A DNA stretch of 63,446 bases, filler included, from Reclinomonas americana ATCC 50394 (lineage: Eukaryota), in the NCBI GenBank assembly GCA_048213135.1. It is 12 parts of 9 records of this genome, joined end to end, with 100 filler letters (N's around TTAATTAATTAA, not from the genome) between each part and the next. Parts side by side here need not be neighbours in the genome. Positions count along the whole stretch, not along the records: positions 12,226 to 19,109 come from PS015911.1; 11 more parts are not named here. One strand, 5' to 3'. The translations under genes and the position numbers were made by a program. The first letter of the stretch is position 1; the number at the start of each line of letters is the position of its first letter. The notes beneath the pieces were generated by a model. The model was not told the DNA's origin and did not search any database. It saw only the letters and a list, made by a program, of their open reading frames with translations. Below, in pieces: positions 6,064 to 59,211 of this stretch.

Positions 6064-9000
6064 ATGTCACTGCGACAGTTTCTCGTGGAGTGGGCCTGTG
6101 CACTCTCTCCACCGCAAACCTCCGATGCAGAGGCGCTGGTGAGCGATGCTGAGCGACGCCTGGCACGCAACGATGTGCACACACTTGGCGGTCTCGCCTT
6201 TTATCGGCGCCTCGATGCACTCGCCACGGCACTGGAGGACGACTCGCATCCGTTTGCACACGCCACGGAGGCGTATGATCGTGTGTGGAGCGCGTGGGAG
6301 GCAGAAGAGTGCGTGCGTTGCAAGGGGCGGTGAGCAAGAACGGCGCACTGATGTGTGTGTGGCATGCAGTCGCATGCCGGTGGTGGATGATGCGGGGGCT
6401 GATGAGCGGTTCCCGGCGCTGGAAGGTGGGTGGGAGGAGGGTGATAGAGAGAGGAGGGCGATCAAGAGAGGGAGCAGGGCGACAGGCAGAGAGCAGGGCG
6501 ACAGAGACAGGGAGCAAGCGACAAGCAGCGGGAGCAAGCGACAGGCAGAGGGAGTAGGCGACAGGCGGAGGGAGCAGTGCAACAGCGGAGGGAGCAGTGC
6601 AACAGCGGAGGGAGCAGTGCAACAGCGGAGGGAGCAGGCGACAGGCAGAGGGAGCAGGCGACAGGCAGAGGGAGCAGGCGACAGGCAGGGAGCAGGACGA
6701 CAGGCAGGGAGCAGGGCGACAGACAGGGAGCGTGCGACAGGCAGGGAGCGGGGCGACAGGCAGGGAACATGGCGACAGAGTCAGCGAGCAGGGCGACAGA
6801 CAGGGAGCAGGGCGACAGACAGGGAGCAGGGCGACAGGCAGAGGGAGCGGGCGACGGGCAGAGGGAGCAAGAGCAGCGTCGTGATCCAACAGTCTCACAT
6901 GCATACGCCCAGACACAAGCAGCTTGATGCACGAGCTGCCGGCTGGCACTGCATTGCCATTCTTCGTGTACGGCACCCTGAGGCCCGACAACTTTACCGA
7001 CGCAGCGTGGCGAGCACCATTCCTCGCCGGCGCTGACATGCTGGTCAAGTTGCGTCCCTTCTGACGCCTCCTTCTTTCTACAACTGCTTATGGAGAGAGG
7101 ATGCAGGGGCACACTGCACGGTTTCGCCATGGCCGTCGGATCACATTACCCGGTGATCTACCCATCGGTGGACGCCACGAGCTCGATCGTGGGTTACCTG
7201 GTGTACTTTGGCGGCGAGGAGGAGTTTGCGGCGAGGTTGCGCTTTGCCGATCACATCGAAGGGTACCCGAATATGTACCAAGTTGCGGGAGATGCCTCCG
7301 TACATTCCTCTCTTCAGCAAGTCTCCACCGTCGGTGCCTGGCTTTCTTCGTTGTCCTGCGATAACTGTGTCATCCTCCTGTTGGTGTCACAGCGCAGCGC
7401 CACATATCGTGACTCCTCTCGCGCTATCTTCTTCGTGAATCTTCTCCTCAACACCCTCTTCCCCCGATCCTCTCTCATCAATCTCCTCCGTATCTTGTTA
7501 ATAGTACTTGTAGCTCTTGTGTTGTCGTCTCATCCTTCCTCTCTAACTGTTTCTCTTCTCCGCCTTCCTTATTCCCCTCCCCGCAATTCTTCCTCAACCT
7601 CTTTCAATGCTCGTCATTCTGTCTGGAGCTGTCCTTCTTCTCTCTCTTTCTCTCGTTACCCTCTTGTCTTCTCTCCTCCATTTGCTTCCTGTATTTCCTT
7701 TGTTTCTCGTTTCTCTCCCTCGGGCTCTCCTACGTCCCTCTCGTCCCTCCTCTCTCTCTTTCTCTCTTTGTCTCTCTCCCTCTCTGCCTTCCTTGCAGCT
7801 CTTCACTTGTCAGAGTTCTTCCGCAATCCCCTTCATTGTTTGTTTATTTTACTCGCGGTTCTGTCCCTCATCCTTCCTCAAACACACATACTCTCTTTCT
7901 CTACTTTCCTTGTATCTCTTACTTTACTTGTGGCTTTCATGCTGCCCTTCGCATCCGTCCTCTCTCCCTCTCTTCTGTCTGCATTCCTTACATCTTCTCT
8001 CCCCACTATTCTTCCTCAATCCCCTTCATTGTTTGTTTACTTAACTCGTGGTCCGTCCCTCTCATACCTCCACAAACACACGCACTCTCTCTCTCTCTCT
8101 TTTCTCTTTCTCTCTTTCTCTGCTTTCCTTGTATCTCTTTACTCCTCAATATTCCTCCATCTCTCTTTTGCTTTACTTGTGACTCCCGTGCTGTCCTTCG
8201 CATCCCTCCTCTCTCCCTCTCTTTCTCTCTGCCTTCCTTACATCTTCTCCTCCACTTCCATATGCTCTCCGTGGTATTCATACTGTCCAGTTTATACCTC
8301 CACTCCCTCTCGCTCACAAACACAGATTGCCTTCTGTCTTCAACATTCTTTATCTCCCCCGTTTCTTGTATGTTTTGTCGATGGCTCTCATCCTGTCCCT
8401 CAAATCCCTCTACGGTCATCGTATCCCTTCCCTCCTGAATATCTTCTCAAAAACCCCTCCTCTAATCCTCACTCTTTTAGCCTCTCCCTCTCCCATTTCC
8501 CTCTTCGTGCCTCTCCTACCCTCCCAATCAAACCCCTCCCATAATCCTCGCTCTTTTAGCCTCTCCATTTCCCATTCCCTCATGGTACTCTCGCCCTTCC
8601 TGTCTCAAATACCCCCTCCCCTAATTCTCGCTCCTGTAGCTTCTCCGTCTCATATCCGTCATACTAATCTCTTACCCTTCCTGTCTCAACACCAACAACA
8701 CAAATCCTCACTCTTTAGCTTCTCCCTTTCCCATATCCCTCGTCGTACATCTCATACTCTCTTGCCCTTCCGGTCTCAATACCCCTCCCCTAATCCTCAC
8801 TATTTTAGCCTCACCCTTTCCCATATCCCTCTTCGTGCCTCTCCTACCCTTGACCAATCAAACCCCTCTTTTGCTTCTCTCTCTCTCATATCCCTCTTCG
8901 TACCTCTCCTACTTCTCCTGTCTCAAATCCCCCCTCCCCTCATCCTCATTTCTTCAGCTTCTCCCTCTCTCACTACTCTCTTTCCCTCCCTTTCCCATAC

Positions 9001-9284
9001 TTCCCATACATCCCTTTCCCCTCTCATCCCTTTCCCCATTTCAGCGCGCTGTGGTCACCATCCACCCCTCACCCTCCACCCCCCTCCCCACATCATCCCC
9101 CATCCAAGCCCTCACCTACTACCGCGCCTCCATCCCCGCCCACTGGTTCGTTCCTCCATCACTCACGCACACACACTTTTCCCTCACCACCTCCCTGCCC
9201 CACAGGTGCGCTCGGCCCGTCCCCACCGGCGACTGGCTCAGTTTGCGCGACGACACCACCCTACACAAGACTCCCGAACTCTAG
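6064..9284 (+). CDS. Gamma-glutamylcyclotransferase (GGCT/AIG2/GGACT-like) protein with an N-terminal extension; about 6 exons
   Basis: Exon ~6892-7048 encodes LPFFVYGTLRPD (GGCT-like YG[ST]L motif). Exon 7107-7281 encodes GTLHGFAMAVGSHYPVIYP...IVGYLV...ADHIEGYPNMYQ, then RAVVTI...ALTYY...PVPTGDWL, ending at TAG 9284. The start at 6064 is less certain. Confidence 0.75.
6470..6870. repeat. ~19-20 bp purine-rich intronic minisatellite (GGGAGCAGGGCGACAGGCAGA-like)
   Basis: Tandem degenerate copies visible in the sequence. Confidence 0.85.
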
Positions 9285-9513
9285 ATCTCCTAATGAATGA
9301 GGGCATGCCGTTCGTGACGATTCATAGAGCATTCTCCGCGAAAGAAAGAGGCAACACGAAGAACCGACAACAGTCACGGCACACGCAGAAGCACTGGCGA
9401 GCATAAGACATGGAAGGAAATGACAAAAGACAGCAATCCACAAAACGAGGCAATGCATGAAACACACAAGAGATGAGATGGCGTGTGTCTATGCATGCAC
9501 AAATGCGAGGAGA

Positions 9514-11474
9514 TTACTGGCTGCCGCTGCCGCCAGCACCCTCATCGTCGTCCGAGCCGAACGGCAATTGCTTCGTCCAGTCGAACGGCTTGCCAGTGAT
9601 GCTGCACGAAGAAGAATATGGTGAGTGCACCACAAATGAAATGCACCGAAAAGAAACNNNNNNNNNNNNNNNNNNNNNNNNNNNNNNNNNNNNNNNNNNN
9701 NTTAATTAATTAANNNNNNNNNNNNNNNNNNNNNNNNNNNNNNNNNNNNNNNNNNNNAGGAGCGAGAGCGAGAGCGAGAGCAGGAGCGAGAGCGAGAGCG
9801 AGAGCGAGAGCAGGAGCGAGAGCGAGAGCAGGAGCGAGGAAGCAGAGAACAAACTCCATCTCTCTCCCTTCTCTGTTCTCCTTTCCCTCTGTCATCCCTT
9901 CTCTTGATGGGCACGCAACAGAGCCTCTCCAGCCGTCACGGGGATCTTCTGCACCTTGCCGGCCTTGTACACGTAGCTGCCGTCGACCAGCATGAAATCC
10001 AAGTAGCGGGTGACCTTCAGGTGCTTGAGAATGCGCACCAGCTTGCCTGCAAGGGGGGTGAGCAACACGTGTCCATCCATCGCGTGACACAGCAAACGCA
10101 CCATCGGCCATGAGGAACTTGGGCACCAGGTCGACATTGTAGTCGCGCGACGGTCCCAGCGCCTCATGCGGCTCACCGCGGCCGTACTAGAGACGCGCAA
10201 AGTGAGACACAATGGGGAATGGGGAGAGAGAGGGAGAGAGAGAGAGAGAGAGAGCAGATCGACACGAGCAAGTGCAAAGCGAGACGAGCTCAGGAACGAG
10301 ACGAAGAAGGGCAGAACGAGACAAGCACAAGCAGAGGGAGACGAGCGAGAGCAGAGCTATACGAGCCAGTGGCGAGAGCAGAGCGACACGAGCCCGAGGC
10401 GAGACTTGGTGAGCAGGAGGCGAGACGAGCAAGGGGTGAACGAAAGAGCAGAGACAGGCAAGAGCAGTGTGAGACGAGCAGGAGGAGAAAGAGACAAGAA
10501 GCAGAGACGAGCAAGATCAGAGCGAGAAGAGCAAGAGCATAACGAGACGAGCAAGAGTACAGCAAGACAGGCAAGAGGAGAGCGAGTCGAGGACGAGCAG
10601 AGCGAGACAGGCAAGAGGAGAGCGAGACAGGCAAGAGGAGAGCGAGACAGGCAAGAGGAGAGCGAGACAGGCAAGAGGAGAGCGAGACAGGCAAGAGGAG
10701 AGCGAGACAGGCAAGAGGAGAGCGAGACAGGCAAGAGGAGAGCGAGACAGGCAAGAGAGGAGCGAGAAGAGCAAGAGCACAGCGAGACGAGCAAGAGCAC
10801 AGCGAGACGAGCAAGAGCACAGCGAGACAGGCAAGAGGAGAGTGAAAGCGGAGCGAGTAAAGAGGTAAACGCGACAAGAGAGAGTGATGAGACAGAGAAC
10901 AATGCACGACAACAAACACTCACTCACTCTCTCTCCCTCTCTCCCTCTCTCTTCCTCTCTCACACACAACGCGACACACACACAGAGTCACAGAGTGCGC
11001 GTGTCACGTGTGAGCCATGCCCACGCGTCGGGGGAACACAAAACAAATGATTCCCTCACACACAACACACACACCACTCACCCGCTCAAACAGCTGCTGC
11101 AGCTGCAACGAGGCCGACTCGGCACCGTAGTAGTCGTTGCGGTCGACGTGGAGCACCTTCATGCCGTCGACAGCGAGCATGCCGCTGCAAAAGACACACA
11201 CGACATGGCCATCAGACTTCCACGCACGCACACACACACACACACACGTTGCTCTTCCCCGCTGCATGTGCTCACCTCATGACGCACTCGGTGAGACCGG
11301 TGCCCAACACAATCCTGTATGCGTGTGCGTCAGTGACACATGATGAGCAGTCAAATGACGCATGTGATGGTGTTATTTTGGCGCGCTGTTGGTGCTATTT
11401 TGTGCGACAACTGTCTCTCATGTGTGCGTGTGTGACAAGCACTGGGGCACTCACGCGTCGTACTCCTCGTCCAT
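9514..11474 (-). CDS. GDI1: Rab GDP-dissociation inhibitor; central part missing in the gap at 9658-9757
   Basis: MDEEYDA|IVLGTGLTECVM|SGMLAVDGMKVLHVDRNDYYGAESASLQLQQLFE|...SRDYNVDLVPKFLMADG|KLVRILKHLKVTRYLDFMLVDGSYVYKAGKVQKIPVTAGEAL is a classic Rab GDI N-terminus. The last exon (~9601-9514) reads ITGKPFDWTKQLPFGSDDDEG...*, resembling GDI C-termini. Confidence 0.92.
10540..10840. repeat. 20-bp tandem repeat AGCGAGACAGGCAAGAGGAG in a GDI intron
   Basis: At least 7 near-perfect consecutive copies at 10601-10750, with degenerate flanking copies. Confidence 0.9.
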
Positions 11475-12225
11475 GGTTAACTCTGTGACGAAAAAACGAC
11501 AAAAAATGCTGCTGAGTGAGCATTCATTGACGTGCGTGTCGGGCGTGTGTGGGAGGGCAGGCACGGAGTTTGGAGGGGGAGGAGGGAGAGAGAGAGAGGG
11601 CGAGAGGAGAGGAAGGGGGGAGAGGACGCGCGCACCTGCTTCGCCAAAAGTAGATGGGTTGGTCGATCGGCGGATCGTGGATCCTGGGGAGTGAAAGGAA
11701 TGCAAGCCGGCTGGCGGTTCGGGAGGTGAAGAGGAGCTGTACTTGCAGTTGGAGAATATGATGCAAAAGAGAAGCAGCTTTAAAAATGAAGAGATCAAAG
11801 AAAACAAGGGAAATACATTGCAAATACCGGAGCCTAGACTGGCAGGCAATTCGGATCGTAAAGATGTCAGTGTGGAGTCACTCACACTCCGCACATCCGG
11901 ACCCTGGCATGTCGAATGTTTTTCACTTCCCTGGATTTTCACTGTCGTGTTGAAATCATCATTCCTGCGCTGCAACAATGACAATAACAACTCCTCCCAT
12001 CTGCTCAAGCCACCACCGATAAGAGCCTCACCAACAACACGACAAGTTCTCTTCTGTTTCAACCACGTCACACCACCACTGCTTTTGCTTGCTTACTTCA
12101 CGGATCCGGACCCGGATTTGCTTTGNNNNNNNNNNNNNNNNNNNNNNNNNNNNNNNNNNNNNNNNNNNNTTAATTAATTAANNNNNNNNNNNNNNNNNNN
12201 NNNNNNNNNNNNNNNNNNNNNNNNN

Positions 12226-15200
12226 GCTGGTGCGCGTGACCAGCGTCCTGCATCGGCACCGCCTCGCTGTGTACGACATGAGAACGCGCAGCATGTAGCT
12301 CACGGCACGTCAAACACACTCGCCTCAGCAGCAACTTCAACCACCCATCCTGAATGCCGGCAAACACGTCCGCCGCACGCCATTCGAGCTCCTCGCGAGT
12401 GATAGTGTAGTCCATCAGTGTCGGGCCTGCAGCACAGAAAGGATGTAAGCATTGTGGAGTTGACTCTCGTCTCCACCTTAAAACGCAACGAGTGACAAAC
12501 AGACTGCCGTTCACCGACAGCAGCTGCAGGTCGACAGGCTCCACCGGCCCACTGCTGGCTCCGAAGAGCGCCAGCATGCCACGACGACGGAGCACCTTGA
12601 GGCCGTGCAGGAAGGTGTCCTTGCCGACGCCATCGTACACCACGTCCACACCGCGACCTGCAAGAGTGTGAGCAGGGATACCTCACCCTCACTAGTTTCA
12701 ACGATAATAGTGCTCATCACTCGTTCTCTTTTTCCTCACATGCACACACTCCCACCCTTCAACCGCATGGATTCGTTCTGTGCTGCATCCCCTTTAACCA
12801 CTCAAACGCACTGCTCTGTTCATATGAATGCAAGCGCATATTCCCGCGTGGACTCGCTCACTCGCTCACACTCACTGGCGTCATCGACATTTCTATGCGT
12901 GCGGTCTCTGCTGCATCCCCTTTAACCATTCACATTCACTGCCCTGTTCATATGAATGCAAGCGTATATTCCCGCGTGGACTCGCTCACTCGCTCACACT
13001 CACTGGCGTCATCGACATTTCTATGCGTGCAGTCTCTGCTGCATCCCCTTTAACCATTCACACTCACTGCCCTGTTCATATGAATGCAAGCGCATATTCC
13101 CGCGTGAACTTGTTCACTCGCTCACACTCACCGGCGTCATCGTATTTCTATGCAAGTACACACGCATGCATGGACAACATCAAAACACGCACACTCACTT
13201 CGTTCAACAAATCTCGCTCTCGTTCTCTTCCCACTCAGTCGCTCATTCGCACACTTACTACCTCTGTTTTACATGCATCCGCTCTCCTCCCCTTCAGCCT
13301 TCCCTCTCTCCATCCACATCATCCACTATCCAAGCACGCACTCACTCATGCGCCAGCATCGACCTGTTCTCCTCTGAATCTCAAACTCAACACACACCCT
13401 TTTCCTCCCCCCTCTCCCTCTTCCCCCTCTCCCTCTTTCTCCTTTTCTCCCTCACCCCCTCACGCACCAGCCGTAATCTCCTTGACGCGATCCACCCACG
13501 ACTCCTGCACGTAGTTGACGACATGATCGCAGCCGACCTGCGCGGCCTCGGCGGCCTTGGCATCGGTGGACACAGTGCCGATGACGGTGGCGCCTGCGAA
13601 GCATGGGGAGGGCGGTGAGAAAAATGATATTGAGCGAGATAAGAAGGCTGACAAAGAAGCGGCAAGAGGAGGAGAGAGAAATAGAGAGACAGTAACTCTC
13701 ACAAAGAGACATGACAACTCTGTCTGGATCTGTGCATGATCTCTATTTCCATGTGTTCATGAACGACTGAAACAAGGAGCGATTACAGCTGTCATTTCTC
13801 TTTCCATCTTTCTCACTCCTCTTTCACACCAAAAGTCATCGGAAACTTTGCAATCCCAATTGCGCCGACTCTGGCGACTTCCATTGTCTCACGAATATCT
13901 GTTTTTTCGTCTCACTATCTCGCCCCTGCCTCTCTGCTACTCATCGCAACACAATTCAGGGTTCGACACCAACAATAAAGGGAGCAAGCACAATAAACAG
14001 TGCATGCCGCCAGAGCGTGTTATCTGCAGCTATCAAACACCAATCTTGTCGCTACCCACAATCTGCCTCTTCCTCTTACTCTTCCTTTCTTCAATCCCCA
14101 TTCTCTTTCCCCCTTCCCTTTTCCCCCGTTCCCCATCATCCCTTCCCCTTCGCCTCCTCACCAATCCTTCTCCTTTCTCCAGTCCCCATTCTCTTTCCCC
14201 CTTCCCTTTTTCCCCTTTCCCCATCATCCCTTCCCCTTCCCCTTCGCCTTTCCCTTCTTCCTCACCAATCCTTCCCCTTTCCCCCTTTTCCTCATTCGCT
14301 TNNNNNNNNNNNNNNNNNNNNNNNNNNNNNNNNNNNNNNNNNNNNNNNNNNNNNNNNNNNNNNNNNNNNNNNNNNNNNNNNNNNNNNNNNNNNNNNNNNN
14401 NNNNNNNNNNNNNNNNNNNNNNNNNNNNNNNNNNNNNNNNNNNNNNNNNNNNNNNNNNNNNNNNNNNNNNNNNNNNNNNNNNNNNNNNNNNNNNNNNNNN
14501 NNNNNNNNNNNNNNNNNNNNNNNNNNNNNNNNNNNNNNNNNNNNNNNNNNNNNNNNNNNNNNNNNNNNNNNNNNNNNNNNNNNNNNNNNNNNNNNNNNNN
14601 NNNNNNNNNNNNNNNNNNNNNNNNNNNNNNNNNNNNNNNNNNNNNNNNNNNNNNNNNNNNNNNNNNNNNNNNNNNNNNNNNNNNNNNNNNNNNNNNNNNN
14701 NNNNNNNNNNNNNNNNNNNNNNNNNNNNNNNNNNNNNNNNNNNNNNNNNNNNNNNNNNNNNNNNNNNNNNNNNNNNNNNNNNNNNNNNNNNNNNNNNNNN
14801 NNNGCGGCGTCGGGTGGTGTGGGCAGGTTGTTGGTGCAGATGGCCAAGAAGATTGGTGAGGAAGAAGGGAAGGCGAAGGGGAAGGGATGATGGGGAAAGG
14901 GGAAAGGGGGAAAAGGGGGAAAGGGGAAGGGTCTGGTGAAAGATTGGTGAGGAAGAATGGAAAGGGGTGGAAAGGGGAAGGGATGATGGGGAAGGGGGAA
15001 AGGGGNNNNNNNNNNNNNNNNNNNNNNNNNNNNNNNNNNNNNNNNNNNNNNNNNNNNNNNNNNNNNNNNNNNNNNNNNNNNNNNNNNNNNNNNNNNNNNN
15101 NNNNNNNNNNNNNNNNNNNNNNNNNNNNNNNNNNNNNNNNNNNNNNNNNNNNNNNNNNNNNNNNNNNNNNNNNNNNNNNNNNNNNNNNNNNNNNNNNNNN

Positions 15201-17205
15201 NNNNNNNNNNNNNNNNNNNNNNNNNNNNNNNNNNNNNNNNNNNNNNNNNNNNNNNNNNNNNNNNNNNNNNNNNNNNNNNNNNNNNNNNNNNNNNNNNNNN
15301 NNNNNNNNNNNNNNNNNNNNNNNNNNNNNNNNNNNNNNNNNNNNNNNNNNNNNNNNNNNNNNNNNNNNNNNNNNNNNNNNNNNNNNNNNNNNNNNNNNNN
15401 NNNNNNNNNNNNNNNNNNNNNNNNNNNNNNNNNNNNNNNNNNNNNNNNNNNNNNNNNNNNNNNNNNNNNNNNNNNNNNNNNNNNNNNNNNNNNNNNNNNN
15501 NNNNNNNNNNNNNNNNNNNNNNNNNNNNNNNNNNNNNNNNNNNNNNNNNNNNNNNNNNNNNNNNNNNNNNNNNNNNNNNNNNNNNNNNNNNNNNNNNNNN
15601 NNNNNNNNNNNNNNNNNNNNNNNNNNNNNNNNNNNNNNNNNNNNNNNNNNNNNNNNNNNNNNNNNNNNNNNNNNNNNNNNNNNNNNNNNNNNNNNNNNNN
15701 NNNNNNNNNNNNNNNNNNNNNNNNNNNNNNNNNNNNNNNNNNNNNNNNNNNNNNNNNNNNNNNNNNNNNNATGCACCACGCACGTCTGCCCCGCCTTCAA
15801 CTCAAACACCGAGTGCACCAAGTAATGCGCCGTCATGCCCTGCAGCAGCGCCGCCGCCGCCTGCTCCAACCCCACCCCCTCCGGCACGCGCACCAGCGAC
15901 GCAGCCGGCGCCACCACGTACTCGGCGTAGCACGAGGTGCCGGTGAAGGCCACGCGGTCGCCCACCTCAAAGCCCTCCACGCCCTCGCCCAGCTCCTTGA
16001 TGGTGCCGGCGGCCTCGCGTCCCTGTGGGGGAGGGAGGTGAGTGGGGGGAAAGGGGGCAAGGGAGAAGAAAGCGACAAACCAGAATCAGCGGCAGGCCGG
16101 CCTTGTTGTACGGCGGAATGCCCTGGCGGATGTATGTGTCGATAAAGTTGACACTGCGCGAGGCAAGGGTAAGCAGGACGCCATAATAAAAGGATGGACA
16201 TGAAGCGTCTTCTCCCTAGCTCTTGTCCGCAGCACATTGTCTCTTCGCTCATGGAGAATCGCGCAGGGAAGAGAGGAAGAGAGCCGACATGAATGCAAAG
16301 ATAGTGCAGACTCCTGCACAACCTCGTTCCGCAGCGAAGAGCACGCAGGGGCAGCTACTTACTTTCACGCTCGTCGGAGTGTGCGAGCGAAAGACCGACA
16401 GAATAGAGTTGGAAGCAACGGAATGTTGCAGACTGCTTCTCACTCTGGCCACAGCCTTGGCTCTCCACTCACTGCTGGCCTCGTCACAGCGAGACAGCTG
16501 CGTGCTCTGCTCTCACACCGAACGATGCAAGAGGAAGAGAGGAGAGACCGAGAGAAAGAAAGTCGGAGACTGCTGAACGGAATGCAAAGATGCGGCAGAT
16601 TCATGCCACGTCTCGCTCATTCCTCAGTTAAGTGTATGAAATGAGCAGCTTGCTCTGACACACTGAGCGACGCAAGAAGAAGATAGGAGACTGCCGAGCG
16701 AAATGCAATGCAACGATGCTGCGGATTGCTTCTCACTCTGTCTCCAAAGCCGTATCTCTCGCTTATCCCTCAGTGAAGAAGGGACAGCAGCTTGCTCCCA
16801 CACAAAACGATGCGAGGGGAAGAGAGGAGAGACCAACAGAAAGAGAATCGGAGACAGCTGAATGCAAACAATGCGTCACACTGCCTCTTACTCTGTCACC
16901 AAGGCTTTGTCTGCACAGCGAAGAGCAGCTTACTCCCGCACAAAACGATGCAAGAGGAAAAAGCAAATGCACAACACCAAGGAATGCATGATAATCTCCC
17001 ATCATTCCCTCCCGCCTTCCCCTCTCCCTATGTCCTCTCTCCTCTCCCCTTGTCCTCTCTCCTCCCTCCTCTGATGACGCAACCCCGCCGCCACCGTCTC
17101 CACCAACACCTGTCCCGGAGCCGGCTTCGGCATCGCCACCGCCTTCCACACAATGTTCTCCGCCCCGCCGTACTCCTCAACCACAGCCGCGTACATTGTG
17201 CTCAT
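12226..17205 (-). CDS. qor: NADPH:quinone oxidoreductase / zeta-crystallin-like MDR enone reductase (QOR family); 3' end lost in gap, one exon on a mis-oriented contig (14804-14855)
   Basis: MSTMYAAVVEEYGGAENI...PAPGQVLVETVAAG|VNFIDTYIRQG...|GREAAGTIKELGEGVEGFEVGDRVAF...LLQGMTAHYL...GQTCVVH|AASGGVGRLLVQMAKKI|GATVIGTVS...DHVVNY...|GVDVVYDGVGKDTF...GMLALFGASSGPV...GSLFVTR|PTLMDY matches E. coli QorA-type motifs throughout. Confidence 0.93.
12782..13150. repeat. ~128-bp tandem triplication in a QOR intron
   Basis: The unit starting gctgcatcccctttaacca occurs at 12782, 12910 and 13038. Confidence 0.85.
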
Positions 17206-17261
17206 TCGCAGACAAAAGAGAGAAAGAGAAAGCGCTCCGACTGATTACTCCGATATTTGTC
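17206..17261. promoter_or_regulatory. 56-bp head-to-head spacer (putative bidirectional promoter region) between QOR and the deaminase
   Basis: The QOR ATG (minus, 17205) and deaminase ATG (plus, 17262) lie in gap-free sequence. Confidence 0.6.
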
Positions 17262-19909
17262 ATGAGTGGAAAGCGCGCGGCTGAGGCCACTGCTGCGGCT
17301 GCGGATGACGAGCCGGCACTCAAGCGGCATCATGCGGGTGGTGATGATAGTGAGGTGTGTGAGTGGAGCGGAGAGGAGGGAGGAGAGAGGAGGGAATGCA
17401 TGCATTGTGCCACTGTGTGCTTCTTCCTGTGCATGTGAGTCTACGCCATCTTCTCTGAGTTTGCGTTGTGCAACGATGTCTAGTGAGAAGCTGTTCTCTG
17501 CACGCACTCTCCTGCGTGTGATTGCTCTTGATTCCTTTGAGTGTGTTGCTCTTCTGCGTTGGATGCGCGCTCTTGTCTGCGTTTGCTCTGTGCTGTGTGC
17601 GTGAGAGGCAACCTGCTGTCTGTGTTTGCATTCGATGTGCGGGTCTGCTGTCTCTGCTTTTTGCACTGAGAGGCTGCTCTCGCTGTATCATGCATGCGTT
17701 GCATTCTGCATCTCTGTATGCCGCCCATCCTCCTCCTTCTTCTTGCAACATTGTCTCTCAGCCCTCGTTCTTTCCTGGTTGTCCTCTTCCTCGCCCTATT
17801 CCTTTTGTCGCTTCTGCAGCACCAGCTTTCTCTGTTCCCTTCTTCTTCAACTGTCTTCCCGTCTTCATTTTCTCGCCTCTCTCTGTTTCCTTTTCTGTCT
17901 CCTTTCCCCTCGTTTGTCTCTCTCTCCTTTCCTTTCCTTTCCATCCCTTCTTCCCCTCTCCTTCCCCTTCTCTCACTTTTCCACCTCGCAGGTGACTTCT
18001 GGTCCAAATGGCGACGCATTCGTGCTGTCTCGACGCGCTGGTGCGCTGGCAAACTACCCGCACATGCGGCGCGCCGGTGGCATGCTGTACGTGTCGGGAA
18101 TTTCATCGCGACGGCCGGATAACACGCATGAAGGTGGGCAGTCGACAGGAAGGCACAGGAGAACAAGCGAGAGAGGGAGAGAAAACAGAAAGCAACAGAG
18201 CGATAAGATGCGAAGCAAACGAGGGTGAGAAGAACGACGCTGAATTGTGACGACTAGAGAATGACTTGAAATACAGGAGATGCAGCAAGAACGAAAGAGA
18301 ATGAGGGTGTGAGAAAGGAACAGGGACGAGCGAGGAAGAAGAAGAACAGGCGAAAGAAGAGCCAGCGAGAAGGAGATGAAATTGCGATAAAGGCACAGAA
18401 AACAGTCAGGGAAGAGCGAGGAATGAGGAAGAAGAGGCTGAGAGGAGAAGCGACAAGATCGAGATGAGGCTGTGAGAACGATCAGGAAGAGCGAGAAAAG
18501 AAGAAAGCAGGCGAATGAAGAGCCAGCGAGAAAGAGAATGGGGCTGTGAGAATGACACAGTCGCATTCACGGAGGAGCGAGGAAAAAATAGGCTGAGAGA
18601 AGAGGCGACGAGAATGAGATGAGATTCTGAGAAAGACGCAGCCTTAGCCAGGGAAGAGCGAGGAAAGAAGATGACTCTGAGACGATAGGTGCAGCGTTTA
18701 GGATAACGCAGCGCTACTCGGAGAGGGAATTAGCGAAGAAGAAGGAGAAGAAAGCAGGATGCAGTGAGGATTGAGGAGCGTATTCAGTGAATATCTGCGA
18801 GCACATCGACGATTCCCAGTTGATTGCTCTTTGAGGCTGCAACTCTCTCACTCCCTTTTGTTTATACGCTTCCCTTCATTCAGCCTCTCCGTTTCCTGTT
18901 TCTCCCCCCACATCCCTTCGCCCTCTGTGCTTCCCCCCTTCTCCCTTCCCCTCACGTCCCTTCTCCTTCCCCTCACGTCCCTTCTCCTTCCCCTCACGTC
19001 CCTTCTCCTTCCCCTCACCTCCCTTTCCCTTCCCCTCACCTCCCTTTCCCTTCCCCTCACCTCCCTTCCCCCTTCCCCCTTCTCCCTTCCCCCTTCTCCC
19101 CTAACCCTTNNNNNNNNNNNNNNNNNNNNNNNNNNNNNNNNNNNNNNNNNNNNTTAATTAATTAANNNNNNNNNNNNNNNNNNNNNNNNNNNNNNNNNNN
19201 NNNNNNNNNTCAAACCTTGATCTCAATCAGGAGATTCGGGTGCGGCAGCTGGTGCACGGCGACGGTGGTGCGCGACGGGCTCGTGTGCGGATCGCTGAAG
19301 AACTCGTTGTAGGCGCGGTTGAAGCCGGCGTAGTCGGCCATGTTGACGAGGTAGCACGTCATGTCGACCACGTGGGAGAGATCGGCGCCGGCGGCGGCGA
19401 GGATGACGGCGATGTTGCGGATGACCGCGCGGGTTTGCTCCTCAATGTCTTTGACGATGGTGCCGTCGGCGGTGATCGTTACCCCTAAAAAGGGGGNNNN
19501 NNNNNNNNNNNNNNNNNNNNNNNNNNNNNNNNNNNNNNNNNNNNNNNNNNNNNNNNNNNNNNNNNNNNNNNNNNNNNNNNNNNNNNNNNNNNNNNNNNNN
19601 NNNNNNNNNNNNNNNNNNNNNNNNNNNNNNNNNNNNNNNNNNNNNNNNNNNNNNNNNNNNNNNNNNNNNNNNNNNNNNNNNNNNNNNNNNNNNNNNNNNN
19701 NNNNNNNNNNNNNNNNNNNNNNNNNNNNNNNNNNNNNNNNNNNNNNNNNNNNNNNNNNNNNNNNNNNNNNNNNNNNNNNNNNNNNNNNNNNNNNNNNNNN
19801 NNNNNNNNNNNNNNNNNNNNNNNNNCTCGAAAGAAGTGTGTGCGCGTGTTCGTTTCTCACGCTGCCGCGCGATGCGCAGGCCGTGGCCGTGGCACCCAGC
19901 CACAGCTGA
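17262..19909 (+). CDS. 2-aminomuconate deaminase (RidA/YjgF/YER057c family, NbaF/AmnD type); exons 17262-17354, 17992-18133, 19484-19216 (on an inverted contig), 19880-19909
   Basis: ...[92 protein letters not shown]...[30 protein letters not shown]. The YPH..R...[11 protein letters not shown] and [17 protein letters not shown] motifs are typical of the bacterial aminomuconate deaminase subfamily. Splice phases match across the flipped exon. Confidence 0.85.
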
Positions 19910-19969: not shown

Positions 19970-20441
19970 TCACAACGCTACCGATCCGCCCACCACATCG
20001 TCAGGGTCGACGGCCACCTCATCGTCCGAATTGGAGTCTGCATCGGCACTGTCGCCACTCACCGACAGGCCGGCCAGTCGCTTCGCCACGCCGTTGACCA
20101 CGTCCACGTGTCCGTCGATCTTCAGCTCGCCCTTGGAGGGCAGGCTCTCCGAGAGCACCAACCGCGGTGCCTTGGTCGTCCACTGCCATTCGTCGCGATC
20201 GTAGCCGAGGAACTCGAGGGCGTTCTGTGGGGGAAGGGGGGTTTAGAACGGCGAACAGAAGCACAGGGAGGATGCAGTCTCGCAAGCGTCTACGCTCTTG
20301 CTGCACACATAAGGCGCAGATGGTGGCTCTCGTATTGCACAAGGGTTCTCACTCACGAGCAAGATGACGAACAAACTTCCCTGAAAATAACGCTGTGTCC
20401 CACACAATACTTGCACACACGCAGACACGAGCAGGTGCACG

Positions 20442-20476
<35 letters not shown>

Positions 20477-23400
20477 CCGGTGTATCTTCCACACCGACAC
20501 TGAAACAATCCGCACAATGCGTACACCAAAACGAACATTGCGCTCACTTGTACGCACACAACATTGTCCCTTTATCTCTCTTTCTCGCACGCACATGCAT
20601 ACACACATACAATCTCTCTCCCTCTCCCTTTCTACCACACTCTCCCACATACAATTCCACCCCCTTCCTCTCTTTCACCCTCCCCTTCCCCTAGCACCCT
20701 CCCTCCCCTTTCCGACAATCACCTTGGTCATGATGCGCTCAGTCACCTCGCGACTCAGCTCCGCCGTCAGCGACACCTTGCCCGGCAACTCCACCTCGCC
20801 CAGCGGGAATGGATAATCGCTGCCCATGCACACGCGCGTGTCGCCGAGTTTGGCCAATAGGAATCTGCGTGAGAATGAAGGAGGTGAGCAAGACTGCCTA
20901 CAATCGAATGCTTGTCAGAGGACAAACCTCAGCGCATCCACGTCGTGCACCAGCGAGTCGACAAAAAACTGCCCGAGGAACGCCGTTGGTGGCTTGCTCG
21001 TATCCATGGCACACAAGTCGGGTCGGCAGTGGTAACCGTGCTCCACGCGACCTGCGCGCGAAGAGTGAGAACAGGAGAGAATGCGCGAAGGAATGTAGGA
21101 CGAAGTAGGTGGTGACACACAGCAGTACCAAACGCCCCGAATTGTCACCACATGCAACAGCGCTCCACCTCTTGCACCTATGACTGTCTCCTCCCAAAGT
21201 AATTGTGCATCGTGCTCTCTCTCTCTCTTCAAGAACTGTGCCTGAGGGTGAGGAAGGGAGAGAGAGACAGAGAGAGAGAGAGCGTGAGTGTCACTCTCTT
21301 TCTCTCTCCTGTATTTGAGGTACAGCCTTCTCCTGCGCTCCTTCTCTCGCCCTATTTTCTCCTCCTCCTCTTTCTCTCTTTCTCTCTCCAAGAACTGTGC
21401 CTAAGGGTGAGGGAGGGAGGGAGAGAGAGGGAGAGCGTGAGTGTCACTCTTTCTCTCTCTCTCTCTCTCTCTCTTGTAATTGAGGGACAACCTTCTCTGC
21501 ATTCCCTGCGCTCCTTCTCTCTCTCTCATCTCTCTTCCTCCTCCTCTTTCTCTCTCTCCCTCTCTCTGCAGTGGTCTCCCTTCCCCGTTCCACCCCTCCA
21601 CACTACTCACCGACGATAAACGGAAACGCGCCACCTCCATGCGCAAAGCACACGCGCAATCGCGGATGCCTCTCAAACACTCCACCGAGAATCATGGCCG
21701 AAATGGCCGCCGCGGTCTCCGAGGGCATGCCGACCAGCCAGCGCAGCCAGTGTCGCTCGAGGAGATCGTGGCCTGTGTGAGAAGGAGAGGGAGATTCAGA
21801 TCACAGGGGGAGAGGAGAGGAGAGGAGAGGGGAGGAGAAGTAAGAGGAGAAGACAGACGAGAAGTAAGAGGAGAAGAAATGGAGGGAGAAAGGAGGGAGG
21901 AGAAGAGAGAAGAGAGACAGAACGCATGATCAGCGAGTATGAGATGACAAGAACAAGGCTAACAGATGAACGCATTAGCGAGAGAATACGAGACGAAACG
22001 ACGTCGTCGGAAGCGTGAAAAAAGAAGAAGGAGAAGAGGAGTGGGAAGAAACAAAACAGACGACGCGAAGAAAGAGGGAGAGCAAGGATGTGCGACTTTA
22101 CGAGAAGAAGTGAGTCATCTGCGTTAGCAATATTAAACGCGAGTGACGAAGTGCAGAGGGCAGAGGAGAGCAAGAAAGTGTGAACGCGAGAGTAAAGGCA
22201 GAGTAGCAGGCACAAAGCAAGGAGGAGAGCATACTGCAGCTGACGAACGCATGATCAGTTACAACGGCCAGCAAAAATCAAATCGCGAGACTCAAATGAG
22301 GAAGCAAAGAAAGGAAAGCGAAAAAGAGAAAATGAGGGAGAAGCAAGAGAGAAAGCACAAAGTAAGCAAGAGAGGAAGCATGAAAGAATTCACGAAAGAC
22401 AGAGAGCGCACCGCAGTGGGCAATCTCACCCCCTTTCCCTCTTTACCCCTTCCCCTTTATCACCCTTTCCCTTCACGCACCCATCAACCCATCCCACGGA
22501 TGCACAAACACCGCCGCCCCCATATCCTCCGCCGCCGCCCAAAACGGCTCCAGTGCCGGATCATCGAGTCGCCACTTATTCACCGACGAGCCAATCTCCA
22601 CTCCGCGCAGCCCCAGCTCCAAACACCGTCGCATCTCCTGCACGGCCAGATCCGGTGCCTGCATCGGCAGCGTGCCGAGGCCGATGAATCGGTCGGGATG
22701 CTCGCGCACCACTTGCGAAATGTGGTTGTTGATGAATTGCGATGTCTCCAGGGCGTGCTCCGGTCGCGCCCAGTAGTTGAAGAGCACGGGGATGGTGCTA
22801 AGGACTTGGACGGAGACGCCGGTGCTGCGGGTGAAGGAGGAGAGAGAGAGGGAGAGAGGGAAAGTGAGCGGATGGGGGAGAGGGAGGAGAGAAGAGAAGC
22901 TCACGCCTCTCTTCCACAACCTCACCTGTCCATCTCCTCCTTCCGCACATCAGCCGCCCATGAGTTCGGCTGTACCTCTCTGAAAAACTGCACGAAATCG
23001 GATCAGCGCCGGGCTCGTCAACCTTCTCCGGGCTAGCAACGCACCTTGGAGCCAACATACATCTTGGCGTTGCACGAACACGATCCCGGTGGCGCATGGT
23101 CAAAGCGCACGAAGCCAGCAATGCCAAAGCTGCGAGAGTAAACGCGAAGGGAGTGGATTGAGATGAGAGAGAGTGTGTGTGTGTGTGACAAAGGAACACG
23201 TGCAAGAGAGACAGGAAAGGCGTGCGAGAGCACGAGAGCAACGACGCTGATATTGAAATGGGTGTGCGACTGTGTGCGCGAGAAAGAAACAGTGAGAGAG
23301 AGAGAGATAGAAAAGAGGAGAGAGCGAGAGAGAGAAGAAACAGAGAGAGAGAGAGGAGGGAGGAAGAGGGAGAGGAGGGAGAGGAGAACAAAGAGCGAGA

Positions 23401-23691
23401 GAGAGAAGAGACAGCCAGAGAGCAGAAGGAGAGCAGNNNNNNNNNNNNNNNNNNNNNNNNNNNNNNNNNNNNNNNNNNNNTTAATTAATTAANNNNNNNN
23501 NNNNNNNNNNNNNNNNNNNNNNNNNNNNNNNNNNNNTTGCTGCTTGTGAGCATTTGTGTGGCTGGGTGTGAAGGAGCCGGGAGAGTAGAGAAGAGGAATG
23601 GAACGAAGGAAGACAAGAAGCCAGCAATGCCGAAGCTGCGAGAGAATGGCTGGGAGTGGATTGAAAGAGAGATAGAGATAGAGATAGAGAT

Positions 23692-23736
<45 letters not shown>

Positions 23737-24435
23737 AAGCAGTAGAAGACCGAGTCTGAGAGCAGAGTGTGCGATGGTTGCTCCAGGGAGTTACTGCGTG
23801 AGGCAAAGGAGACTATAGAAGTGTGGAAAGGAAGAGCGGAGAAGAGAGGAAGAGAAGATTGGTCTGAAGAGAATGTGCGGTTGGCACATTGTGCGAGAGA
23901 TTGTGCTGTGTGACTGTGTGTGTCTCTGTGTAGGAGAGCGAGTGTGCGGAGGAGTGAGCGAGGAAGAGAGAGAGGGAGAGAGAGAGAAAGAGAAAGAGAG
24001 GGCGAGAGAAACTGGAAGAAGACTGAGAGGGATTATGCGGTGCTTCTTGAGGCGCAAGTGCCAGTGCTTGTGAGGAGTATTCACACACGAGTGTGCGAGA
24101 GTGTGTGTGAAAGAGAGTGAGGGAGCGAGCGCACGAGAGACGGAGAAGTCTTGTCGCGGAATAAACGTCAGATTCTCGCCTGCTCAACGCGCGACGGTCT
24201 CTCACCCTCTCACGCATCACCCTCTTCTCCATACAGCCACCACCAAAGGAGAGAGCGTCAGAAAGAGAAAGAGAGAGAGGGGCGCGCGGGAGAGTGAGTG
24301 AGCCATTTCCGTCGCCTTTCCTTCTTCCCGCGCGACTCACCGCTCCGACCAATCAGGCCAGTCCTCGGGAATGATGTGTGTGTGAATGTCGATGCGCTTC
24401 AGTGATTCGCGCTCCCGCAGTGACGCACTCTCCAT
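19970..24435 (-). CDS. ACMSD: 2-amino-3-carboxymuconate-6-semialdehyde decarboxylase (amidohydrolase superfamily), about 8 exons
   Basis: KRIDIHTHIIPEDWPDWSER|FGIAGFVRFDH...|FFREVQPNSW...EEMD|STGVSVQVLSTIPVLFNYWARPE...RFIGLGTLPMQAPDLAVQEMRRC...FVHPWD|...WLVGMPSETAAAISAMILGGVFERHPRLRVCFAHGGGAFPF|GRVEHGYHCRPDLCA...DSLVHD|...GSDYPFPLGE...|NALEFLG. The metal-binding HxH, H and D motifs of ACMSD are present. Confidence 0.96.
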
Positions 24436-55623: not shown

Positions 55624-55872
55624 CCATCTATCTCTTTTCCCTCTTTCCCCTCCTCTCCTTGCACACAATGAGAGAGCATTGAATTGATGACGAGGTTATT
55701 AACAAAACACGACTTTCTTGTTTTTAATCACCGCCCCGCCCTCGAATACCCGTGGAAGGAAGGCGCCTCACCCGCCACCGCCNNNNNNNNNNNNNNNNNN
55801 NNNNNNNNNNNNNNNNNNNNNNNNNNTTAATTAATTAANNNNNNNNNNNNNNNNNNNNNNNNNNNNNNNNNN

Positions 55873-58289
55873 NNNNNNNNNNCGCTCACGCGCCGCAGCG
55901 CGCGCCTCCTTGCGGTCCTGGCGGGCAGCCTTGGCGGCATCGGCGGCATTGGCGGCAGTGGCAGCGGCGGCGACGGCGGCGGCGACTTCCTCCTCAGCCT
56001 GCTTCTGCTGCACCTCGGCAGCCTTGCTCTTGCTGCTGCGTCCGTGCTTCGACTTCTTCGACTTGCTCTTCGTCTTCTTCTTCTGCTGTTGCTGCTGCTG
56101 CTGCTGCTCCTCGTCCGAGTCAAAGAACGCGGCGTTCTTGTCGTCCGCACCGCGGTCACCCGGCGAGCCACCGTCCTCGTCGTCGTCGTCAAAGAACGAA
56201 GCGTTCTTCTCCGACGAGGCGTCGTCGTACGGCGAGCGAGTGGTGGAGCGTGACGGCGGGCGAGCGCCAGTCGATTCGACCACATCCTCAAACTTGTCCT
56301 CCAGCAGCGCCTGGCGCAGGCCATCGACCACATCGGTCGGGCGCGGCGTCGTAAACGTGCTACCGGCGGCCGGCATCATCGAGGCGGCGGCAGCGGCCAC
56401 CAGCGGGTGCTGAGGAGCACGCGGTGGGCGCGGAGCCTTGGCACCGGTCGACTCAACCACGGCCTCAAACTCCTCCTCCAGCAGCGCCTGACGCAATCCG
56501 TCGACCACGTCGGTCGGGCGAGGCGTCGTAAACGTGCTGGCGCCAGCAGTGGCGGCGGCAACGGCGGCCGACATTTGCGGTGCGCGAGGCGGCTTGGTGC
56601 CAGTGGAAGCGATGAGATCGCCCAGACGCTGCTCCTCCATCGCACGACGCAGTCCATCGACCACATCGGCCACGCGAGGAGTCACACCCATCTGCGGCGA
56701 TGCCGGCACCTGCTGCGGCTGCGCGCCAAGCGGGGCGCGACGCGGGCGGGCCGGTGACTTGTTCGGCTGGGCGGATTCGCCATTGGCGGCGGCGGCGGCA
56801 GCTGCCGCAGCAGCCGACGCCACACCGCCGGCACCCGACGACTCCAACACCTCGCTGAGACGCTGCTCGGAGAGCACGCGGAACAGACCGTCGACCACCT
56901 CGTCGTGACGCGGTGTGGCAACAGAGGCGGCGGCGGCGGCAAAGGCACGCTTGCGCGCGGCAGCGGCATTCTCCGGCGTGTGCTCATCATCCTCCGGCAA
57001 ATCGGCCTCGCCCAGCAAATCGTCGAGGGCGGCCGCACTGCGCGGAGTCGTGGCTCCACGGTGCGTCAGCAAGCCCTCCAGACGATCCTGCAAGTTCTCG
57101 GTGCCGTCGGACTTGGAGCCGACCTTGACAGCCTCGCTGAGCGGCACGTCGCTGCCGTCGGCGCTGATCGGCGTCGGGCGGCGGCGAGCCGGGGACTTGC
57201 TGGTACCACGAGGAGTCGACTCCTGCTGCTGCTCCATCTTGCGGAAGTGGTCGACCACCTCCTGCTGCGCAGACTTTTGCTGACGGGCCTCGACCACACG
57301 CTGGCGCTCTTCGCGCGACGGCGGCGGCGGCGGAGCCTGGGCACCATTCGGCGACTCGGCACCACGAGGTGTGCGCAACGAGAGACCACGGGGCGTCTTG
57401 AGCTGCGTCGGCTGCTCGTCGTCGTCCATCGGCGGCGGCAGCGGAGTGCTGGTCGGTGAGAACAGGCTCGGCATGCCCTCCTCGCGCGGCGTGACGTTGG
57501 CGGGACCCGGGGTGGCGGAGCCAGCACGCGGGGTGAGCGCCGGACCCGGAGTGCCAGTGCGCGGCGACGAGGCAGGGAGAGCGGGCGACGCGGACAGGCG
57601 ACGCGGCGTGACAAACGGCGTGTTGGCATCGGCGGCGTGCGGCGACGGCGGTGGCGGCGGGAGCGGCGTACGAGTCGTTGTCAGACCGCGAGGAGTGGTC
57701 AGGCCACCACGCGGCGTCATGGACGGCAGCGAGCGCGGCGAGTTGTTGCAGCTGGCATTGGCGCTCCAGGCCGTCTTGCGACCCTTGATGCGATCCATGT
57801 CCTCGCCGGCCTCCGTTGCCATGTCGTCGTCGGCAGCATCGTCGTCGTCGTCGGCGCGCGTAGCATCCGACTCGTCGTTCCACTTGGTGGGGCGATCGCC
57901 GGCGGCGTAGCGGAGCGACTCGGAGCGCGGCATGTCGTCGCTGCCGTCGTCCGTCACACCGCGGTTGGCGGCGGCCATCTTCATGGCGAGCTCGTTGGCG
58001 CGAGCGGACACCGGACCCTGCTCGGTCTCGTGCTCGTGCAGCGAGACCTCGGACCAGTTGACCTGCGCCGGCTGCGGGTACATCGACGCGTCGTGCGCCA
58101 ACGCCGGCAACTCAATCTCCGAGCCCTCCTCTGACTCGCGCACCTGAGTGTTGCGGCGACCGCACCAGCGCGACCAGTTGATGCGGCGGAGCAGCAGCAC
58201 CGGCAACAGGAGCGGCAGCAGTGGCAAGAGGAAGATGAGGCCCACAATGCGCATGCAGCGTGCACTGAAGAGCGACTTGAGCTTCGCCC
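55873..58289 (-). CDS. Partial intron-free ORF (>800 aa): hydrophobic segment, disordered TPR-tripeptide-rich region and a 4x ~30-aa repeat; function unknown
   Basis: Long GC-rich open frame bounded by gaps. It has a TM-like RIVGLIFLLPLLPLLLPVLLL and repeats of TPRxxxVVDGLxxxLxExxxxxxxESTG. Confidence 0.7.
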
Positions 58290-58389
58290 NNNNNNNNNNN
58301 NNNNNNNNNNNNNNNNNNNNNNNNNNNNNNNNNTTAATTAATTAANNNNNNNNNNNNNNNNNNNNNNNNNNNNNNNNNNNNNNNNNNNN

Positions 58390-59073: not shown

Positions 59074-59211
59074 GGTGTGCGCACGCGTGCGTGGAGTGTG
59101 CGTGTGTGTGTGTGTGTTTGCGCGCGCTCGCGATGATGAATGGACAGATTTTGTGAGGGCCTGTGAGGGACACGGGACGATGGTGGGACTCGCGAATTCT
59201 TTTGTTTCACG

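Follow-up and report, generated by a model that had tools for sequence, protein, structure and literature searches.

A zeta-crystallin-type oxidoreductase gene beside a lower kynurenine gene cluster of Reclinomonas americana is a candidate for the reduction of 2-oxohex-3-enedioate to 2-oxoadipate

A stretch of 63,446 nucleotides from the genome assembly GCA_048213135.1 of the eukaryote Reclinomonas americana ATCC 50394 (hereafter the window) carries a gene for a QorA/zeta-crystallin-type NADPH oxidoreductase (QOR; 12226..17196, minus strand), which lies head-to-head with the gene of a RidA-family protein, a predicted 2-aminomuconate deaminase (AMD). This pair is clustered with ACMSD and with an AMSDH-type aldehyde dehydrogenase (ALDH). 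We propose that QOR reduces 2-oxohex-3-enedioate, the expected product of AMD, to 2-oxoadipate in this eukaryote, and we give this assignment a probability of about 0.4. The initial annotation of the window, made from the sequence alone, had suggested QOR for this step; our follow-up adds comparisons with Pfam, NCBIfam, sequence profiles, solved structures, gene loci and the literature.

According to this proposal, QOR would be the fourth member of a compact cluster for the lower kynurenine branch, next to the decarboxylase ACMSD, the AMSDH-type dehydrogenase ALDH and the AMD-type RidA deaminase. AMD would release 2-oxohex-3-enedioate, an α,β-unsaturated 2-keto acid that is the tautomer of 4-oxalocrotonate, and QOR would add a hydride, taken from NADPH, at C4 and a proton at C3, yielding 2-oxoadipate. 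QOR would then be a lineage-specific, non-orthologous stand-in for an SDR (short-chain dehydrogenase/reductase) without the usual catalytic tyrosine motif that is found in bacterial kynurenine operons. That the AMD branch was completed by a recruited QorA-family enone reductase, so that the four clustered genes make up the whole route from 2-amino-3-carboxymuconate semialdehyde (ACMS) to 2-oxoadipate, is a tentative extension of the same idea.

The family membership of QOR is clear. Pfam places ADH_N (PF08240, GroES-like) and ADH_zinc_N (PF00107, Rossmann) on separate exons, and the top NCBIfam match of the three exons scanned is NF008024, 'NADPH:quinone reductase'; the exons score 53, 67 and 33 bits each, where the family cut-off, 348 bits, is meant for the whole protein. 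A profile of 322 positions was made from the nearest relatives of 300-335 aa among the best 120 matches, and the exon translations span its positions 1-296. On the minus strand, the first base of the start codon is 17196, and the profile maps exons approximately to 17196-17084, 16155-16084, 16022-15772, 13597-13466, 12661-12476 and 12427-12317. The linker at 12226 truncates the gene, which therefore lacks its 3′ end; the stretch 12316-12226 is a putative last exon that may hold a short intron, and neither piece 2 of the window nor the rest of 9758-17300 contained a match to the last ~26 profile positions (297-322). The zinc-dependent alcohol dehydrogenases (Zn-ADHs) hold their catalytic zinc through a Cys near position 40 and the His of a GHE motif. 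Both ligands are absent from QOR, which has G-R-E in place of G-H-E and V-N-F at the Cys site.

The dinucleotide-binding motif AxxGxxG is present as AASGGVG (14804-14824), on an exon at 14804..14857 of the plus strand. This exon sits in a 202-bp island (14804-15005) between runs of N, opposite in strand to the remainder of the gene, and we read the island as an inverted small contig because the exon fits profile positions 144-162 exactly; its continuity with QOR would follow from this reading. The intact motif of the initial annotation is therefore there, on an exon of the opposite strand and in a gene that lacks its 3′ end. The closest solved structures are the bacterial quinone oxidoreductases 9kuj, 4rvs, 3jyl and 1qor, the 2-haloacrylate reductase 1wly and yeast Zta1 (3qwa). 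With an 83-aa exon as query, the nearest database proteins are ~55-66% identical and ~322 aa long, and those that bear a name come from Acidobacteriota and other bacteria and are called quinone oxidoreductases. No fusion proteins occur among the best 120 of 5774 QOR matches. Judged by its sequence, the gene is predicted to encode a conventional cytosolic, Zn-independent, NADPH-dependent oxidoreductase of the QorA/zeta-crystallin type.

The divergent start codons of QOR and AMD are separated by 65 bp (17197..17261). The head-to-head arrangement previously noted is real, with a spacer that had been given as 56 bp. The AMD-type gene (17262..18132, plus strand) begins with an ATG at 17262 and comprises exon 1 (17262-17354) and exon 2 (~17992-18132). 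Exon 2 matches the N-terminal part of an AMD alignment (A2) and a profile of operon-borne RidA proteins, and ends in DNTHE plus one base. Exon 3 (19213..19494, minus strand; PF01042, E 4e-23) lies in a 287-bp contig (19210-19496) between a linker and a run of N, and its junction with exon 2 restores the consensus of the relatives in A2. Over the exon, the top 120 relatives are 61-76% identical, and many of them are named 2-aminomuconate deaminase by JGI and NCBI. The invariant positions through K132 of A2 appear by eye to be present, and the protein seems to end a few residues short of its relatives. The RidA neighbour of QOR is thus an AMD-type predicted deaminase clustered with ACMSD and AMSDH, in agreement with the initial annotation on both its type and its linkage, the genes continuing across piece boundaries.

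ACMSD (20723..24434, minus strand; Pfam Amidohydro_2) has its ATG at 24434 in piece 5 and an exon map that runs down into piece 4; relatives of that name are 57-71% identical. A spacer of 972 bp (24435..25406) separates its start codon from that of the divergent AMSDH/ALDH8A1-type ALDH gene (25407..32700, plus strand; Pfam Aldedh), whose ATG stands at 25407 in piece 5 and whose exons extend through piece 6. The ALDH exon map covers profile positions 14-479, and TIGR03216 (2-hydroxymuconic semialdehyde dehydrogenase) is the best NCBIfam match for two of the five ALDH exons scanned. Because three genes cross piece boundaries, pieces 3-6 form a single locus of ~20.5 kb with two divergent pairs, QOR with AMD and ACMSD with ALDH, of which the former is the tighter.

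The window joins 12 pieces of an assembly with spliced genes, linked by N44-TTAATTAATTAA-N44 and with further runs of N inside the pieces. Two small contigs (14804-15005 and 19210-19496), each flanked by N runs or a linker, hold exons antisense to their own genes, the AASGGVG exon of QOR and exon 3 of AMD; both are most likely mis-oriented in their scaffolds. Inverting the 287-bp contig alone explains the data. An inversion of the entire piece 4 was dropped, since ACMSD would then nest in an AMD intron, and it is also contradicted by the course of ACMSD from piece 5 into piece 4 in the orientation of the window.

What the locus encodes is confined to steps past the ACMS branch point, with no upstream kynurenine genes: six-frame profile searches and tblastn found no HAAO, KYNU, KMO, TDO, cyclase or SDR in the window. 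Among the stop-to-stop open reading frames (ORFs) of the window scanned against Pfam, which cover 63 kb of the genome only, there was no member of FAA_hydrolase (the family of oxalocrotonate decarboxylase and hydratase), of HMGL/DmpG (the aldolase) or of the aspartate-dehydrogenase-type family. The bacterial downstream enzymes are accordingly missing from the window, as had been noted from the sequence.

Published work leaves room for such an enzyme. In fungi, a RidA-family AMD yields 2-oxohex-3-enedioate, while in animals ASPDH acts as 2-aminomuconate reductase (AMR) and yields 2-aminohex-3-enedioate, and across fungi and animals AMD and AMR are described as mutually exclusive (bioRxiv 10.64898/2026.06.05.730449, a June 2026 preprint). 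The main text of this preprint names no enzyme that reduces 2-oxohex-3-enedioate and mentions none of the terms quinone, crystallin, oxalocrotonate, enoate, short-chain or SDR. A fungal study leaves the fate of the AMD product, in the passage concerned, at 'reduction to 2-oxoadipate or decarboxylation', and reports a syntenic SDR at the 3-hydroxyanthranilate cluster of Aspergillus (PMC7842363). An 'oxalocrotonate reductase' is named without a gene in a figure legend of PMC12899273, and the relevant excerpt of PMC13151070 mentions only NQO1 and has no bearing here. Within the literature searched, we found no gene for the conversion of 2-oxohex-3-enedioate to 2-oxoadipate, which upholds the earlier statement that none had been assigned. 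The premise that Zn-independent enzymes of the MDR superfamily (medium-chain dehydrogenases/reductases), such as QOR, reduce the C=C bond of enones and enals also holds: the QOR subfamily is described as taking in alkenal/one reductases, which reduce a C=C bond adjacent to a carbonyl (PMC5343027), and the proteins of solved structure closest to that of the window include a 2-haloacrylate reductase.

To see QOR and its neighbours in a wider setting, loci were collected from prokaryotic genomes and metagenomes, the scope of all our linkage searches. With ACMSD as bait (alignment A1), 551 stretches of prokaryotic genomes matched; we took the best 80 of them, each with flanks of 10 kb, clustered their 1222 ORFs and annotated the representatives. 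Among these 80 loci, HAAO was present in 49, kynureninase in 42, SDR in 35, KMO in 35, ALDH in 34, RidA in 18, a 2-oxoglutarate (2OG) oxygenase in 14, cyclase in 12 and TDO in 5. With QOR as bait, 80 metagenome loci (736 kb) that carry its nearest relatives, 50-68% identical, were retrieved. With AMD as bait, 40 Acidobacteriota loci, from 40 of the 41 matching genomes among 301 searched (genome G029 was counted and not included), were joined by 12 loci of Pseudomonadota and 3 re-fetched ones. One ORF cluster of the bacterial loci (c9) was discarded as an artefact of ORF picking, as it always overlaps HAAO, ALDH or RidA in antisense.

The reductase gene that bacterial kynurenine operons commonly carry encodes an SDR of ~262 aa without the usual YxxxK motif. 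It was found in 35 of the 80 ACMSD loci, in 9 of the 40 Acidobacteriota AMD loci and in 7 of 15 further AMD loci, and in recurrent operons it directly adjoins ALDH or RidA (examples in our numbering of loci are L057:8585-9373 on the minus strand, L196, L200, L203, L210 and L238-L243). AerF (6jh7) and BacG (3u49) are among its best solved relatives. This tyrosine-less SDR is a conserved reductase partner of the kynurenine pathway in bacteria, and since a reductase gene is a habitual part of kynurenine operons there, a reductase in the cluster of QOR is a reasonable expectation.

A number of other arrangements were seen in the bacterial loci. L232, a locus without an SDR, has a gene of the ApbA/ketopantoate-reductase family (8408-9472, plus strand) immediately upstream of RidA-HAAO-ACMSD, and an aldo-keto reductase adjoins the AMD-type RidA in L193 (10145-10996, minus strand) and L194 (10140-10970, minus strand), likewise without an SDR. 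The 2OG-Fe(II) oxygenase (PF13532, ~199 aa) lies between kynureninase and KMO in its 14 ACMSD loci, mostly of Hymenobacter and Pontibacter (for instance L005-L019, L036, L037, L046 and L051). In L195, from Acidobacteriota, a single frame (10651-12513, plus strand) holds the domains of ACMSD (Amidohydro_2) and of tryptophan 2,3-dioxygenase, and may be a fusion or the result of a missed stop codon.

Several results weigh against the proposed role. No QOR or other MDR gene was present in any of the 80 bacterial ACMSD loci, either in a profile search of the 1222 ORFs or by tblastn over 1.36 Mb, and ACMSD, HAAO, KYNU, KMO, ALDH and AMD were absent from all 80 metagenome loci of the nearest QOR relatives, three of which gave distant SDR-family matches. 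Among 52 AMD loci, MDR genes occurred in L191 only, as two distant Zn-ADH-like genes that lie outside the operon, 5-6 kb from ACMSD and beyond three genes of the opposite strand. The association of QOR with ACMSD, AMSDH and AMD, whose recurrence in other genomes the initial annotation had held out as a check, was thus encountered in the window and not again among the prokaryotes and metagenomes searched, an outcome that the initial annotation had itself listed as refuting, here for prokaryotes only. Adjacency in one fragmentary assembly, which truncates QOR at its 3′ end, is the only evidence for its role, and the protein keeps the consensus of its unlinked bacterial relatives at nearly all conserved positions, with no sign of specialisation. 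Other lineages fill the reduction slot with other enzymes, and an SDR orthologue, a 4-oxalocrotonate decarboxylase route or an ASPDH may lie elsewhere in the genome, beyond the 63-kb window. Of the AMD subgroup closest to that of the window, 11 loci were annotated. Aminophenol or meta-cleavage clusters make up some of them: FAA_hydrolase, acetaldehyde dehydrogenase and DmpG aldolase occur in L231 and L236, acetaldehyde dehydrogenase in L237, and a LigB dioxygenase in L235 and L236. No downstream enzyme is evident in L192, L195 and L234, which are kynurenine clusters, and L232, L193 and L194, with the other reductase types described above, also belong to these 11 loci. Because the closest bacterial AMDs stand partly in clusters of the decarboxylase route, that route may be encoded elsewhere in the R. 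americana genome as well. QOR would, in any case, be specific to its lineage and not a general eukaryotic solution; since the linkage is unseen elsewhere in the loci searched, bacterial operons carry the SDR and animals use ASPDH, the earlier suggestion that QOR could point to the missing enzyme of other eukaryotes finds no support.

The same observations raise the prospect that QOR is a general-purpose NADPH:quinone and alkenal/one reductase of the QorA/zeta-crystallin type that merely adjoins AMD, ACMSD and ALDH, any shared divergent promoter having no meaning for the pathway. Its ordinary QorA-type sequence at conserved positions, the want of any kynurenine gene beside its nearest relatives, the lack of a QOR in the ACMSD loci and within the AMD operons, and the occupation of the slot by an SDR in bacteria, a syntenic SDR in Aspergillus (PMC7842363) and ASPDH in animals (as described in bioRxiv 10.64898/2026.06.05.730449) would all be expected of such a neighbour. 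We regard this as a serious contender, albeit a somewhat doubtful one. It leaves as coincidence that the gene next to a three-gene cluster for the post-branch-point steps comes from a family whose chemistry is just what the following, gene-less step requires, that QOR and AMD are the closest-spaced pair of the locus (65 bp versus 972 bp for ACMSD and ALDH), and that the window has no alternative reductase. These three points also argue for QOR as the reductase of 2-oxohex-3-enedioate, together with the AMD type of its neighbour, the habitual presence of a reductase in bacterial clusters of this pathway and the lack, in the literature searched, of any gene for the step.

QOR might instead be tied to the pathway as a protective enzyme, co-expressed to clear reactive by-products without making 2-oxoadipate; these could be the quinone-imines that arise when 3-hydroxyanthranilate or 3-hydroxykynurenine auto-oxidises, or further electrophiles of the pathway, enones or aldehydes. 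The textbook activities of the family, quinone reduction and the detoxication of reactive alkenals and alkenones (as summarised in PMC5343027), are in keeping with this, and the divergent arrangement across 65 bp would fit co-regulation. We consider it unlikely, as the cluster lacks the genes for making 3-hydroxyanthranilate and 3-hydroxykynurenine, no protective QOR accompanies the pathway in ~130 prokaryotic loci, and the reduction step would be left without an enzyme. Still more improbable is that QOR takes 2-aminomuconate itself as its substrate, reducing the enamine or conjugated diene in the manner of animal ASPDH/AMR and thereby competing with the deaminase or bypassing it. The preprint (bioRxiv 10.64898/2026.06.05.730449) does describe a 2-aminomuconate reductase activity in animals that depends on NAD(P)H, and QOR, predicted to depend on NAD(P)H as well, is part of the cluster; however, QOR is unrelated to ASPDH, a dedicated AMD 65 bp away argues for deamination first, and the mutual exclusion of AMD and AMR stated there for fungi and animals speaks the same way.

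The carbon path from 2-aminomuconate to 2-oxoadipate is a decades-old question, and the locus supplies a concrete candidate enzyme that can be assayed with the substrate-generation system described in the preprint (bioRxiv 10.64898/2026.06.05.730449). If QOR does reduce 2-oxohex-3-enedioate, the four genes of the locus would form a complete module leading from ACMS to 2-oxoadipate. QOR would then add an independent enzyme family for the oxalocrotonate reductase step to the candidate from bacteria, the tyrosine-less SDR, and to animal ASPDH, whose mechanism is different. The reduction step would then have been solved repeatedly by non-orthologous enzymes. If QOR does not have this role, the tyrosine-less SDR of many bacterial operons stays the leading candidate.

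Some further features of the locus deserve a record. One 10-mer is common to both divergent spacers, against 0.3 expected from shuffles, which is not significant; its sites on the plus strand, at 17233-17242 (~20 nt before the AMD ATG) and 25348-25357 (~50 nt before the ALDH ATG), may be due to chance. CT-rich microsatellites occupy many introns across the locus, and a QOR intron contains three tandem copies of a 128-bp unit (12777-13153, 93% matches). A 90-aa open frame without a Pfam or NCBIfam match (19973-20242, minus strand) lies directly downstream of the final ACMSD exon and may be 3′ untranslated region or a small gene. In a quick tree of one ACMSD exon (113 aa, 33% of columns, on a long branch), the sequence falls outside the starred clade of five early-diverging fungi and among metagenome proteins (SH-aLRT 94, not starred), and these metagenome neighbours are at most 62-74% identical to any fetched bacterial locus. 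This tree supports no lineage assignment.

Across the window, the Pfam scan of ORFs identified Rab GDI in piece 2, the QOR exons (minus strand) and RidA exons (plus strand) in piece 3, the C-terminal RidA exon and the Amidohydro_2 exons in piece 4, and the Aldedh exons in pieces 5-6. The genes farther along are unrelated: an adenosine deaminase, HisKA, Mgm101 and one WD40 protein. An open frame of 836 aa without a family match (55834-58341, minus strand) lies in a stretch of 69% G+C, close to an intronless frame of 367 aa with seven WD40 repeats (59167-60267, plus strand).

The ascomycete 3-hydroxyanthranilate clusters with HAAO, ACMSD, AMSDH and AMD (PMC7842363; bioRxiv 10.64898/2026.06.05.730449) resemble the window in being eukaryotic and in having divergent gene pairs. 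According to the descriptions given in these sources, they contain HAAO and an intronless AMD, whereas the window has no HAAO, an AMD with introns and a QOR; the syntenic extras listed for them are a Baeyer-Villiger monooxygenase, an SDR and a transporter, and a QOR is not mentioned in those descriptions. Like the proposed QOR, animal ASPDH/AMR is an NAD(P)H-dependent reductase of the same pathway, acting directly after ALDH8A1, but it differs in fold and superfamily, and its substrate is given in the preprint as 2-aminomuconate and its product as 2-aminohex-3-enedioate, not 2-oxoadipate. The tyrosine-less SDR holds the counterpart position in bacteria, beside ALDH or RidA, and is likewise a candidate for the reduction to 2-oxoadipate; the two proteins belong to unrelated superfamilies, SDR and MDR, and the SDR is widespread in bacteria whereas the QOR linkage is seen in the window only. 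The 2-haloacrylate reductase CAA43 (1wly), which two QOR exons match with E 2e-10 and 2e-12 and which is one of the closest relatives of solved structure, reduces a C=C bond conjugated to a carboxylate with NADPH. It has another substrate and another genomic context, and its relation to the window's QOR is not shown to be closer than that of ordinary QORs. With E. coli QorA (1qor), M. tuberculosis Qor (4rvs), P. syringae QOR (3jyl) and yeast Zta1 (3qwa), the window's QOR has in common the two-domain architecture, the AxxGxxG motif and the lack of a His in the GHE position. We know of no link between any of these four proteins and tryptophan catabolism; what distinguishes the QOR of R. americana from this group is its placement inside a lower-kynurenine cluster.

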